In this document: one piece after another, positions 22,795 through 27,309 of the stretch
Position numbering within the stretch: position 1 is the first letter of the stretch
Layout of the letters: the number at the start of each line of letters is the position of its first letter
Notes under the pieces: generated by a model
Databases searched by the model: none
Told to the model about the DNA's origin: nothing
What the model saw: only the letters and a program-made list of their open reading frames with translations
Program-made: the position numbers and the translations under genes
Assembly: GCF_000026545.1 (NCBI RefSeq)
Contig: NC_011601.1
Reading direction: 5' to 3' (one strand)
Length of the DNA stretch: 64,000 nt
From: Escherichia coli O127:H6 str. E2348/69
GTDB taxonomy: Bacteria; Pseudomonadota; Gammaproteobacteria; Enterobacterales; Enterobacteriaceae

Positions 22795-24735
22795 TTAAAC
22801 CGAGTATCTTTGTGAATATTTTTTCACGTTAGTATCAAGTGGCTGTGAGGACGCGAAAAAATCCCCTTGCCCACCTGTAACACCGCGCTGAATCAGGGTC
22901 TGCCACTCGCTTCGCGAACGCACGCCGGTGGCGTAAACCTGGGTGCTGGTCCCGGAGCAGGCTTCCACCAGGCTTTGAACCAGCAGCTGGTTCTCCGTTC
23001 GCTTCTCAATGTTTCTGACCAGCCCCGGATGGAGCTTGAGTAACTCAACATTAAGTTCTTTGATCCAGCTGGTGCTTACCAGCGTCAAACCAGCCTGGTT
23101 GACGGCTACCCGTACCCCTAAAGCATTCACTAAACGAATAACAGGTTGTAAGCGACTGATATGTTGACCAACATCGGCCTCTGCAAGTTCAATAATTATG
23201 CGTCTTCGTTGCGATTTTTCACATTGCATTAACGTATCGCGCAGCCAACGCTGAAAACGCGGGCGAATCAGCGACTCAACGGTAACCTGAATCGCCAGAT
23301 TTTCCTCTGGCCAGTAACGCAATAGTGGAATAAGACGGCTGATTTGCAGGCGGTCATACTCTTCCGATAAACCAAACTGCAAGACCATCGGCATATACTC
23401 CGCCGAACTAACCTCTTCATTACCATCGAAGATGCGGCACATGAGTTCACGATGATGAACCTGGCCTTCGCGAGTAACCGCCGGTTTTTGATAAAGGCGC
23501 GGGCCGCCGCGACTGAGCATTTGCTCGATAAGCGTACGCCAGCGAACATTACCGCGTCCTTTTTCAGGCAACGAGTCATCGTAAATAGCCCAGCTATTGC
23601 CGCCCTGCAATCCCGCATTACGCGTGGCAGACTCTGCATGTTCCATTACCTGCTCGGTATCCTGACCACTACGCCAGGCACAGATACCAATGTGGATCAT
23701 ATCGTCGCGATCGAGCATTTTATTGTTCGGCAAGGTATCGACGGCTTTGATTAACTGACTGGCGATGCTCTCTGCCTCTTTTAACGTCCGGTGCGGTAAC
23801 AACGCAGCAAAATCACTGCGGTGGTAACGCGCCAGCAGTGCGCCAGGGTAGCGCATCATAAATGTCGATAGCAGATTCGTCAGAGAGAAGAACTGTTCTT
23901 CAACCTGGCTGTGCCCCCAGGTATCACTCAACATATTGAAATCCGGCAGACGAATCATCATCACGATTCCGTGGGTACCTACTTTCTCTTGATCTTCCAG
24001 TAACGTTGCTAACTGATTATCGAAAAAGAGTCGGTTATTGAGGCCGGTTTTCATGTCCTGGGCGGCATAAGAGCGGATCAGAGTATCAAGACGGCTGTGT
24101 TGTTCGCGTGCGTTCTGAATTTCACAAAGCAGCGTATCCAGCGCACTGCTGGTTCTGGGCGGCCATTCATAGATGGTTCCCAACACATTAGAGCCACGCT
24201 CACCGTTTAAGATACGAGTAGCCCGGGTTTCCAGCAATTCTTGCCCGGCAAGTTGCCGTTGTAACCAGCGTACCGCCAGGAAGAGCATAAGAATGATAAA
24301 GCCAATCGCCCCCGTGAGCGGCGCGGTAGTCATTAAAGAATGGAAATAGTTGCCCATCGGATCCTGATAAACCAGACGCAGCGACATCCCCGGATGCTTT
24401 ATCAATGGAACGCTCAGTTCACGAAACAGATCGTTGGTGCCAACCGGACGATAACTACCATTTCTGGTCAGGGTATAAACCTGCTTATCACCATGGAGCA
24501 GGTCTACACGAACGATATCTGCCGACATCATTAATTCGGTAATTTGTGGCCTTAATGTGCTGAAGTCATTCGACAGTAGGTGGGTATCAATCGCCGCCGC
24601 CACCGCCTGAACACGATGACTAAACTTATACTGAATGGCGTTGTAGAAACTTAGCGAACAGCCCAGCAAAGTCACAAAAATTGTTAACCCGGTGAGCAGC
24701 GTGACAAAGGCCGAAAATTTCGTCGTTAATCTCAT
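22795..24735 (-). CDS. csrD: CsrB/CsrC decay factor CsrD (degenerate GGDEF-EAL protein), 646 aa
   Basis: ORF track; MRLTTKFSAFVTLLTGLTIFVTLLGCSLSFYNAIQYKF...; position upstream of mreB. Confidence 0.93.
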   Translation of the reverse strand: MRLTTKFSAFVTLLTGLTIFVTLLGCSLSFYNAIQYKFSHRVQAVAAAIDTHLLSNDFSTLRPQITELMMSADIVRVDLLHGDKQVYTLTRNGSYRPVGTNDLFRELSVPLIKHPGMSLRLVYQDPMGNYFHSLMTTAPLTGAIGFIILMLFLAVRWLQRQLAGQELLETRATRILNGERGSNVLGTIYEWPPRTSSALDTLLCEIQNAREQHSRLDTLIRSYAAQDMKTGLNNRLFFDNQLATLLEDQEKVGTHGIVMMIRLPDFNMLSDTWGHSQVEEQFFSLTNLLSTFMMRYPGALLARYHRSDFAALLPHRTLKEAESIASQLIKAVDTLPNNKMLDRDDMIHIGICAWRSGQDTEQVMEHAESATRNAGLQGGNSWAIYDDSLPEKGRGNVRWRTLIEQMLSRGGPRLYQKPAVTREGQVHHRELMCRIFDGNEEVSSAEYMPMVLQFGLSEEYDRLQISRLIPLLRYWPEENLAIQVTVESLIRPRFQRWLRDTLMQCEKSQRRRIIIELAEADVGQHISRLQPVIRLVNALGVRVAVNQAGLTLVSTSWIKELNVELLKLHPGLVRNIEKRTENQLLVQSLVEACSGTSTQVYATGVRSRSEWQTLIQRGVTGGQGDFFASSQPLDTNVKKYSQRYSV

Positions 24736-24886: not shown

Positions 24887-25861
24887 ATGCAGGCGTTACT
24901 TTTAGAACAGCAGGACGGCAAAACTCTCGCATCAGTACAGACTCTGGACGAAAGTCGCCTGCCGGAAGGCGATGTCACGGTTGATGTTCACTGGTCGAGC
25001 CTGAACTACAAAGATGCGCTGGCGATTACCGGTAAGGGAAAAATCATCCGTAATTTTCCGATGATTCCTGGGATCGATTTTGCCGGAACTGTACGCACCA
25101 GCGAAGATCCGCGTTTTCATGCCGGTCAGGAGGTGTTACTCACTGGCTGGGGCGTTGGTGAAAACCACTGGGGTGGGCTGGCGGAACAGGCGCGAGTGAA
25201 AGGTGACTGGCTGGTTGCCATGCCGCAAGGGCTGGACGCGCGTAAAGCAATGATTATCGGTACTGCCGGTTTTACCGCCATGCTGTGTGTGATGGCGCTG
25301 GAAGATGCCGGTGTTCGCCCGCAGGATGGGGAGATTGTCGTGACGGGTGCCAGTGGTGGCGTCGGCAGTACCGCCGTGGCGCTGCTGCATAAGTTGGGTT
25401 ATCAGGTCGTTGCTGTTTCCGGTCGCGAAAGTACCCATGAATATCTGAAAAGTTTAGGTGCCAGCCGTATTCTTCCTCGCGATGAGTTTGCCGAATCCCG
25501 TCCTCTGGAAAAACAAGTCTGGGCTGGGGCAATTGACACCGTTGGCGACAAAGTGCTGGCAAAAGTGCTGGCGCAAATGAATTACGGCGGCTGCGTGGCG
25601 GCCTGTGGTCTGGCGGGTGGTTTTACTCTGCCAACCACGGTCATGCCATTTATTCTGCGTAATGTCCGTTTGCAAGGGGTGGATTCAGTAATGACGCCAC
25701 CAGCACGCCGCGCACAAGCCTGGCAGCGACTGATCACCGATTTACCGGAATCATTCTATACCCAGGCGGCAAAAGAGATATCTCTGGCAGAGGCACCGAA
25801 GTTTGCCGAGGCCATCATTAATAACCAGATCCAGGGTCGCACGCTGGTGAAGGTTAACTAA
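24887..25861 (+). CDS. acuI: Acrylyl-CoA reductase AcuI (YhdH), 324 aa
   Basis: ORF track; MQALLLEQQDGKTLASVQTLDESRLPEGDVTVDVHWSSLNYKDALAITGKG... zinc-independent MDR-family oxidoreductase. Confidence 0.93.
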   Translation: MQALLLEQQDGKTLASVQTLDESRLPEGDVTVDVHWSSLNYKDALAITGKGKIIRNFPMIPGIDFAGTVRTSEDPRFHAGQEVLLTGWGVGENHWGGLAEQARVKGDWLVAMPQGLDARKAMIIGTAGFTAMLCVMALEDAGVRPQDGEIVVTGASGGVGSTAVALLHKLGYQVVAVSGRESTHEYLKSLGASRILPRDEFAESRPLEKQVWAGAIDTVGDKVLAKVLAQMNYGGCVAACGLAGGFTLPTTVMPFILRNVRLQGVDSVMTPPARRAQAWQRLITDLPESFYTQAAKEISLAEAPKFAEAIINNQIQGRTLVKVN

Positions 25862-26535
25862 CCATTTAGCAGGGAATAATAAGAGAGGGAACTCATTTTG
25901 AAATCATTATTCAATCGGTTAACGGGAAAAGCGGTTAGCCGGACAGCTTTCGTCGAACATCTTGGTTATGAAGTTGTACAACATCATCCAAACTGGAAAG
26001 TCATGATTTCGACTGACCATAAATTGATGCGCATTGATGCTCCACCAAACAGCCATTATTGATACGCCTCCGTCGCCTGTTAGGTTTATGGTGCTTTGCC
26101 TTGGCGACGCTACGCTTAATCTGTTACTGATTTCTGGTACCATGGGGGGAATAATCTGATTTTATTTGATTACAAATTAACCACTTAAACCTATTGAATG
26201 CGGAGCATTGTCAGTCGGTTAATTTTGCGCGCTTTAGCATTCACATCTTTCCAGACGATGCAGTGAAAATTGGGTAATCCCCAGCAACCGCTGCGTAATG
26301 TCGTCTATCTTGTCGCGATCCTGGCATCCCTACATTATTTGTGGTCTGTGAAGATTATCTCATTGCAGCCCCCCATCTTCGCAGGGCTGGCTTTACAGCT
26401 TTTCACCTTACGTTATAAGAAGTTCCGTCGATGATGGCGCTAATTTCGTGAATTGTGCGGCTTGTTGCAAATTACACGGTGTTGAAGGTTATTTACATGT
26501 TAGCTGTTGATTATCTTCCCTGATAAGACCAGTAT

Positions 26536-26570
26536 TTAGCTGCCAATTGCTACGAAATCGTTATAATGTG
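26536..26570 (+). promoter_or_regulatory. Candidate accBC promoter (-10 TATAAT at 26562-26567)
   Basis: Consensus TATAAT hexamer about 270 bp upstream of the accB ATG, consistent with the known long accBC leader; -35 assignment is uncertain. Confidence 0.35.
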
Positions 26571-26838
26571 CGACCTCGTCCTCCCTGACGCAGTTTTTGC
26601 ACTGCGGAAAAGGTGACATTGGCGCAACGAAGGTATATTTTGTTTTTTGCCGGAGGATAGCAGCAGATCGCTGCACAATGTCCGTCAAGTCTAACATTGA
26701 CACTCTGGGGCAAAATAGACCGGCGTCCCGGCCTGCTGGAATTTATCGCTATGCATACAGCTGTCGGGGCATACGCTTTACAGACGGCGGTGAAACGCCT
26801 GTCACAATCACACTAAACAAAGAGTACGGAACCCACTC

Positions 26839-27309
26839 ATGGATATTCGTAAGATTAAAAAACTGATCGAGCTGGTTGAAGAATCAGGCATCTCCGAACT
26901 GGAAATTTCTGAAGGCGAAGAGTCAGTACGCATTAGCCGTGCAGCTCCTGCCGCAAGTTTCCCTGTGATGCAACAAGCTTACGCTGCACCTATGATGCAG
27001 CAGCCAGCTCAATCTAACGCAGCCGCTCCGGCGACCGTTCCTTCCATGGAAGCGCCAGCAGCAGCGGAAATCAGTGGTCACATCGTACGTTCCCCGATGG
27101 TTGGTACTTTCTACCGCACCCCAAGCCCGGACGCAAAAGCGTTCATCGAAGTGGGCCAGAAAGTAAACGTGGGCGATACCCTGTGCATCGTTGAAGCCAT
27201 GAAAATGATGAACCAGATCGAAGCGGACAAATCCGGTACCGTGAAAGCAATTCTGGTCGAAAGTGGACAACCGGTAGAATTTGACGAGCCGCTGGTCGTC
27301 ATCGAGTAA
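26839..27309 (+). CDS. accB: Biotin carboxyl carrier protein AccB, 156 aa
   Basis: ORF track; [37 protein letters not shown]... with biotinylation motif [10 protein letters not shown]. Confidence 0.96.

Follow-up and report, generated by a model that had tools for sequence, protein, structure and literature searches.

This study asked why nearly 1 kb without a gene separates acuI from accB in Escherichia coli O127:H6 str. E2348/69. Positions refer to the window, that is, the whole 64,000-nucleotide stretch of contig NC_011601.1 that was analyzed. A preliminary description of this DNA had assigned the last roughly 300 bp of the interval to the accBC promoter and leader and had reported no recognisable gene in the remaining approximately 680 bp, proposing that these might hold an unannotated small protein, a small RNA, regulatory DNA for accBC, or nothing. 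The limits of the acuI and accB reading frames confirm that the gap is real; 977 bp without an intact gene lie between them. Judged from sequence comparison, homology appears to explain the whole interval, which very probably consists of the debris of two genes followed by the normal accBC regulatory region (Table 1). The yrdF' and yrdE' relics and the accBC promoter and leader are already known, and the locus is an ordinary one. What is added here is the route by which the relics may have arisen and the two-haplotype structure of the locus.

Table 1. Features of the acuI-accB interval and its flanks (positions in the window).
Feature	Position	Strand	Description
csrD	22795-24735	-	ORF list, RefSeq name
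acuI	24887-25861	+	ORF list, RefSeq name
Spacer 3' of acuI	25862-25897	+	Holds the Shine-Dalgarno-like AGAGGGA (25884-25890) of the DUF1444-like gene and of the stub
yrdF' pseudogene	25898-26040	+	First 47 codons (TTG start) of a 276-aa DUF1444-like gene; K-12 b4697 maps here
54-codon TTG frame	25898-26062 (including stop)	+	47 DUF1444-derived codons and 7 out-of-frame msrQ-relic codons, TGA
74-aa minus-strand frame	25919-26143	-	Chance ORF antisense to the relics
msrQ segment found only in the stub haplotype	26039-26141	+	103 bp, codons ~66-100; absent from DUF1444-intact genomes; blastn junctions against L002, L006 and E. albertii L008
yrdE' pseudogene	26041-26434	+	Relic of the ancestral accB-linked msrQ (yedZ), codons ~66-199; K-12 b4646
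Conserved DNA upstream of core promoter	26435-26539	+	1 segregating site in 105 bp; conserved across genera from 26506 onward
accBC sigma-70 promoter	26540-26567	+	-35 CTGCCA, 16-bp spacer, -10 TATAAT; 10/12 consensus matches
accBC 5' untranslated leader	26576-26838	+	~263 nt
accB	26839-27309	+	ORF list; accC next

The first relic is the 5' end of a DUF1444-like gene. In some E. coli strains this gene is intact, encodes 276 aa and begins at the same TTG; its product is named 'DUF1444 domain-containing protein' or 'hypothetical protein'. A tblastn search of the window with the intact protein revealed that residues 1-47 align with 45/47 identities (E = 6e-30), the homology ending at 26038-26040, and the DNA from 25800 to 26038 was 98.7% identical by blastn to that of a DUF1444-intact E. 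coli genome (L002). The yrdF stub thus shares with the full protein (WP_000838294.1) its first 47 codons, its Shine-Dalgarno sequence and its TTG start, but only 17% of the gene is left. The upstream context was identical in 10 of 13 stub-type and intact-gene genomes and one base off in the other 3. A 54-codon TTG frame preceded by AGAGGGA had previously been placed at 25896-26060 and said to resemble no recognised protein. The frame is real, has 54 codons and lies 7 nt downstream of AGAGGGA, but its coordinates are 25898-26062. Because the DUF1444 homology stops at 26038 and msrQ sequence runs from 26039, the frame is composed of 47 and 7 codons of different descent; far from resembling nothing, it is the 5' stump of a real gene with an msrQ remnant after it, and both are annotated in K-12 as yrdF and yrdE.

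The parent protein scored 16 bits against the Pfam DUF1444 model (PF07285), below the 23.8-bit gathering score (E = 0.009; residues 29-270 of 276 aligned), and 20.7 versus 221 bits against NCBIfam PRK13668. Its family is tiny, comprising 12 clusters among 5.8 billion proteins, and no homologue of solved structure was found at E<=1. Distant homologues (61-63%) adjoin KfrA_N and Aca2 genes, and these neighbors suggest a mobile origin; the DUF1444-like gene thus probably came from a mobile element. On one contig (L094; Logan ERR11172932, 1-5501), a 63%-identical homologue adjoins KfrA_N, Aca2_YdiL and DUF7352 genes in a plasmid- or phage-like context.

The second relic derives from msrQ (yedZ), which encodes the haem-binding membrane subunit of the MsrPQ methionine-sulfoxide reductase. 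When the window was searched with K-12 MsrQ by tblastn, residues 69-97 and 101-195 aligned, the latter at 62% (E = 1e-32), and the relic DNA was 76% identical to K-12 msrQ over 390 bp. The repaired translation of yrdE' matched the NCBIfam MsrQ model PRK05419 at positions 69-193 of 212 (E = 1.4e-26); since it lacks the N-terminus, it scored 93 bits, short of the 130-bit full-length cut-off. A frame change occurs between 26128 and 26144, in-frame stops lie at 26128, 26186, 26195, 26264 and 26432, and the original msrQ stop is the TAA at 26441-26443. The absence of codons 1-65, the frame change and the five stops together identify yrdE' as a pseudogene. It is homologous to MsrQ over codons ~66-199 and sits upstream of accB just where other Enterobacterales have an intact msrQ; in contrast to MsrQ, it lacks the first ~65 codons and the partner msrP and is not a functional member of the family. 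A tblastn search of the interval yielded no MsrP match (best E = 3.1), and an msrP remnant is absent from the window. The ~680 bp in which no gene had been recognized therefore hold two gene remnants.

Both remnants have been annotated before. In K-12 MG1655, yrdF (b4697, 3404495-3404637) and yrdE (b4646, 3404638-3405031) are listed as pseudogenes, and a K-12 genetics paper describes them in the same way (PMC7648144). The region 25802-26900 aligned with K-12 without gaps at 97.4% identity, and this gap-free alignment places the two K-12 pseudogenes at the positions given in Table 1. In E2348/69, to which the interval matched at 100%, the PGAP/RefSeq annotation describes 26047-26434 as 'cytochrome b family protein; frameshifted; internal stop; missing N-terminus', and PGAP has annotated 'YedZ' pseudogenes in many other strains. 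The E2348/69 pair resembles the K-12 pair in its position between acuI (yhdH) and accB, its junctions and its collinear sequence, whereas it differs in being the phylogroup B2 allele, with 5, 10 and 13 substitutions in the three relic segments and an unchanged structure.

We examined 80 accB loci from species-representative genomes for the order of their genes. The arrangement (acuI-)msrP-msrQ-accB-accC was found in approximately 45 of the 80 loci, and loci with (acuI-)msrP-msrQ-accB occurred in Citrobacter, Enterobacter, Kluyvera, Serratia, Yersinia, Erwinia, Pantoea, Pectobacterium, Hafnia, Edwardsiella and Budvicia. These results show that the ancestral order in Enterobacterales was csrD (in the reverse orientation), acuI, msrP, msrQ, accB and accC, and the ancestral home of msrPQ is thus beside accB. 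In E. albertii the order is acuI-DUF1444-msrQ'(codons 121-196)-accB, with a nearly full-length DUF1444-like gene of 271 codons. One Logan contig from a relative (SRR33454298_114260) carries acuI (AcuI 92% identical), a DUF1444-like gene (78%) and msrP, and this is the undeleted arrangement. The functional msrPQ of K-12 is located at the hprRS-hiuH locus, and the working E. coli MsrQ encoded there differs in its C-terminal tail. The yrdE' relic was 76% identical to the hiuH-linked msrQ, compared with 66-71% for Citrobacter and 64-66% for Enterobacter msrQ. That the relic is closest to the hiuH copy fits a duplication within the Escherichia lineage that would have been followed by loss of the original. 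The contrast between E. coli, with HprRS and the hiuH locus, and Citrobacter, Enterobacter and Yersinia, in which msrPQ adjoins accB, provides useful background for studies of MsrPQ regulation.

The locus exists in two forms within E. coli. The full DUF1444-like gene was present in 667 of 5,426 complete E. coli genomes, and the rest carried its first 141-143 bp only. Approximately 88% of complete E. coli genomes have the stub form (haplotype A), K-12 and E2348/69 among them, and the form with the full gene (haplotype B) is found in approximately 12% of E. coli and in E. albertii. A junction probe applied to 5,425 E. coli genomes returned the same two classes and no intermediate with an intact DUF1444-like gene and a longer msrQ relic. 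The msrQ segment that only haplotype A retains (103 bp, Table 1) was contiguous with Citrobacter werkmanii msrQ by blastn, and haplotype B keeps 858 bp that haplotype A lacks. Since each form holds DNA that is missing from the other, neither derives from the other, and both would be independent deletions of a longer ancestor. In haplotype B, the 168 bp that follow the DUF1444-like gene align with the msrP 5' end of the Logan contig and are therefore a decayed msrP stump. Haplotype B also has a terminator-like hairpin downstream of the DUF1444-like gene (L002 2430-2458), which is missing in the E2348/69 window.

From these few comparators, we infer the following order of insertion, duplication and deletion. 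On the branch that gave rise to Escherichia, a DUF1444-like gene would have entered the space between acuI and msrP; Escherichia would then have come to depend on another copy of msrPQ, located at hiuH. Its accB-linked msrPQ may have decayed and been trimmed by two alternative deletions. The deletion that produced haplotype A would have extended from DUF1444 codon 48 to msrQ codon ~66, fusing yrdF' to yrdE', and that of haplotype B would have spared the DUF1444-like gene, the decayed 5' end of msrP and the part of msrQ from codon ~100 on. In the literature searched, we found no account of this haplotype history or of a move of msrPQ to the hiuH locus, which HprRS controls.

The distribution of variation among strains divides the interval at the end of yrdE'. 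Among eight stub-type E. coli genomes, segregating sites amounted to 11.3% in yrdF' and to 9.7% and 11.6% in the two yrdE' segments, compared with 2.0% in the 3' end of acuI; for the relics, 10-12% is rather more than even neutral sites would lead one to expect, and the values come from eight genomes only. In the same eight genomes, 1/105 sites segregated in 26435-26539 (1.0%) and 2/299 in 26540-26838 (0.7%), or 3 over the total of 404 bp, and only one base differed between E2348/69 and K-12 in these 404 bp adjoining accB. The yrdF' and yrdE' relics are accordingly very probably functionless and drifting neutrally, and the 404 bp between the former msrQ stop and accB (26435-26838) form the native, selectively constrained accBC control region. 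Among the four options proposed initially, 'nothing functional' comes closest for 25898-26434, where two fast-evolving pseudogene relics lie; 'regulatory DNA for accBC' was also right, and it applies to a longer stretch than had been noted, the full 404 bp being near-invariant in E. coli. The locus thus offers a small worked example in which the control region of an essential operon is frozen and the adjacent dead genes decay approximately 10 times faster.

The accBC promoter and its long leader were reportedly described by Li and Cronan in the early 1990s. CTGCCA-16-TATAAT was the only strong promoter-like site, and the promoter and leader fill the last 299 bp of the interval, in good agreement with the ~300 bp originally allotted to them. 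The accB start site has been mapped to -263 by 7 reads, with identical -35 and -10 boxes (Mendoza-Vargas 2009, supplement 3; PMC2760140), which places the transcription start at ~26573-26576 and gives a leader of ~263 nt. The element in the window therefore matches the known accBC promoter and leader in its boxes and start, with no difference in E. coli. The segment 26506-26576 was 85-92% identical in Yersinia, Serratia, Erwinia, Pantoea and Pectobacterium, amid unalignable DNA. Blocks conserved across genera extend over 26506-26698 and 26770-26838, and the last 69 nt before the accB ATG were 94-99% identical within Enterobacteriaceae. A difference lies in spacing; the promoter block stands ~650 nt upstream of accB in most other genera, compared with 263 nt in Escherichia.

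Several smaller observations concern the same region. The promoter block is similarly close to accB in Citrobacter and Superficieibacter, and a leader stretch of ~386 nt elsewhere (loci L012, L015, L017, L024, L026, L029, L040, L042, L064 and L083) corresponds to 72 nt here (26698-26770). A FadR-operator-like site, CTGATAAGACCAG, lies at 26520-26532 just upstream of the -35 box, with 1 mismatch to CTGGTNNGACCAG, the core consensus of the FadR operator; the 64-kb window contains 3 such 1-mismatch matches versus 0.75 expected. This is a probable FadR site, predicted from its sequence, in the accBC control region. An RNA 3' end has been reported at K-12 position 3405373, equivalent to 26776 on the plus strand and 63 nt upstream of accB (bioRxiv 10.1101/2020.07.18.207399), and it lies at the border of the leader block that is best conserved. 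These data hint at attenuation or processing in the accBC leader.

We then weighed three ways in which the interval might carry an additional function. One is that the yrdF stub has been kept because it encodes a functional small protein of 54 aa, whose translation would use the Shine-Dalgarno sequence and TTG inherited from the DUF1444-like gene. The AGAGGGA motif and its distance to the TTG favor this idea, as does the frame, which was open and exactly 54 codons long in 9/9 sampled stub-type genomes. With so few substitutions, however, the frame would stay open by chance approximately half the time, according to a rough estimate. The pN/pS ratio of the stub was 0.59 (11 nonsynonymous and 5 synonymous polymorphisms in 47 codons of eight genomes), a value not distinguishable from neutral, versus 0.18 in intact DUF1444-like genes, and the polymorphisms include W33C, G23S, K42T and three states at codon 24. 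The 7-codon tail is also variable (APPNSHY, TPLNSYY, TPLNSHY, TPPNSHY), the 54-aa stub had no Pfam match, K-12 curators class yrdF as a pseudogene, and one small-ORF ribosome-profiling supplement has no yrdF entry (nor does it list accB or yhdH). The published supplements searched contained no translation or transcription entries for yrdF or yrdE, the only entries being the accB start site and the 3' end. A maintained small protein is therefore very unlikely, and residual translation of the stub frame is possible, the Shine-Dalgarno sequence and TTG having been kept. A broader reading would combine such a product with an old two-haplotype polymorphism, descended from an acuI-DUF1444-msrP-msrQ-accB ancestor, in which a minority of strains keeps a gene related to mobile contexts under purifying selection and the majority expresses the stub as a micro-protein; we consider this reading unlikely.

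A second possibility is that the relic region serves accBC regulation, for example by letting transcription read through from acuI or because an upstream promoter or operator lies within it. In its favor, the scan of 25700-26950 found no terminator-like site after acuI or anywhere up to accB, as had been described, and the hairpin of haplotype B is missing in this haplotype. The relics, however, are the most variable part of the locus, and the exchange of 103 bp in haplotype A for 858 bp in haplotype B has left the accBC control region unchanged. The start site mapped at -263 (PMC2760140) likewise argues against this role. In K-12, a kan cassette at ~26475/26476, which splits the relics from the promoter, left growth rate and cell dimensions as in the wild type (bioRxiv 10.1101/359208), indicating that the relics need not adjoin the promoter. 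A regulatory role of the relics is thus highly improbable. The third possibility, that the interval encodes a small regulatory RNA, was addressed with the covariance-model scan that had been proposed as a check, and no Rfam family reached its gathering score. The best match, Ysr190 (RF02764) at 26542-26641, scored 25.1 bits against a gathering score of 66 (E = 0.65), and no match at E<=10 was found in 25862-26540. In Yersinia and Serratia, the syntenic DNA upstream of accB does give full-score Ysr190 matches, and the RNA 3' end 63 nt upstream of accB could also be cited in support. The match in the window, however, takes in the accBC -10 box and the first part of the leader, and it therefore represents the accBC 5' UTR and not a separate gene; a small RNA here is extremely improbable. 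The interpretation of the interval as gene debris and accBC control DNA thus requires no new gene, small RNA or regulator to account for the long acuI-accB gap, and a false lead is removed.

The 74-aa minus-strand frame lies exactly where it had been reported (Table 1). As a gene it was rejected; an in-frame stop interrupts it in 4/8 E. coli genomes, in one of these four the ATG is missing as well, and the frame has no Pfam match.

Other observations concern the exchange and rearrangement of DNA around this locus. The yrdF stub region was 97.9% identical between E. coli and E. albertii (L008 4308-5120 compared with window 25898-26038), whereas the flanking acuI was 90.1% identical, which suggests that this segment may have been recently exchanged between the two species. 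In the DUF1444-intact strain 23AR0998 (L006), an IS1A element lies between the DUF1444-like gene and the msrQ relic (2198-2895). The C-terminal tail of E. coli MsrQ (LRSLFNRLRKQVHNKLSV; L007 5063-5119) is absent from the accB-linked orthologues, and its SLFNRL segment equals residues 3-8 of the DUF1444-like protein and of the yrdF stub (window 25898-25921; tblastn 7/8). No DNA alignment of this tail with the yrdF start (KSLFNRL) rose above shuffled controls, and the shared SLFNRL may be either chance or a trace of rearrangement. Finally, Logan contigs of <=1.4 kb (P0012) encode a predicted protein of 205 aa, in which AccB residues 1-153 are fused in frame to a K-12-type yrdF stub from residue 4. 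The fusion resembles a new junction of the kind created when the yrdF-accB segment is duplicated in tandem or amplified, or else a circular clone.
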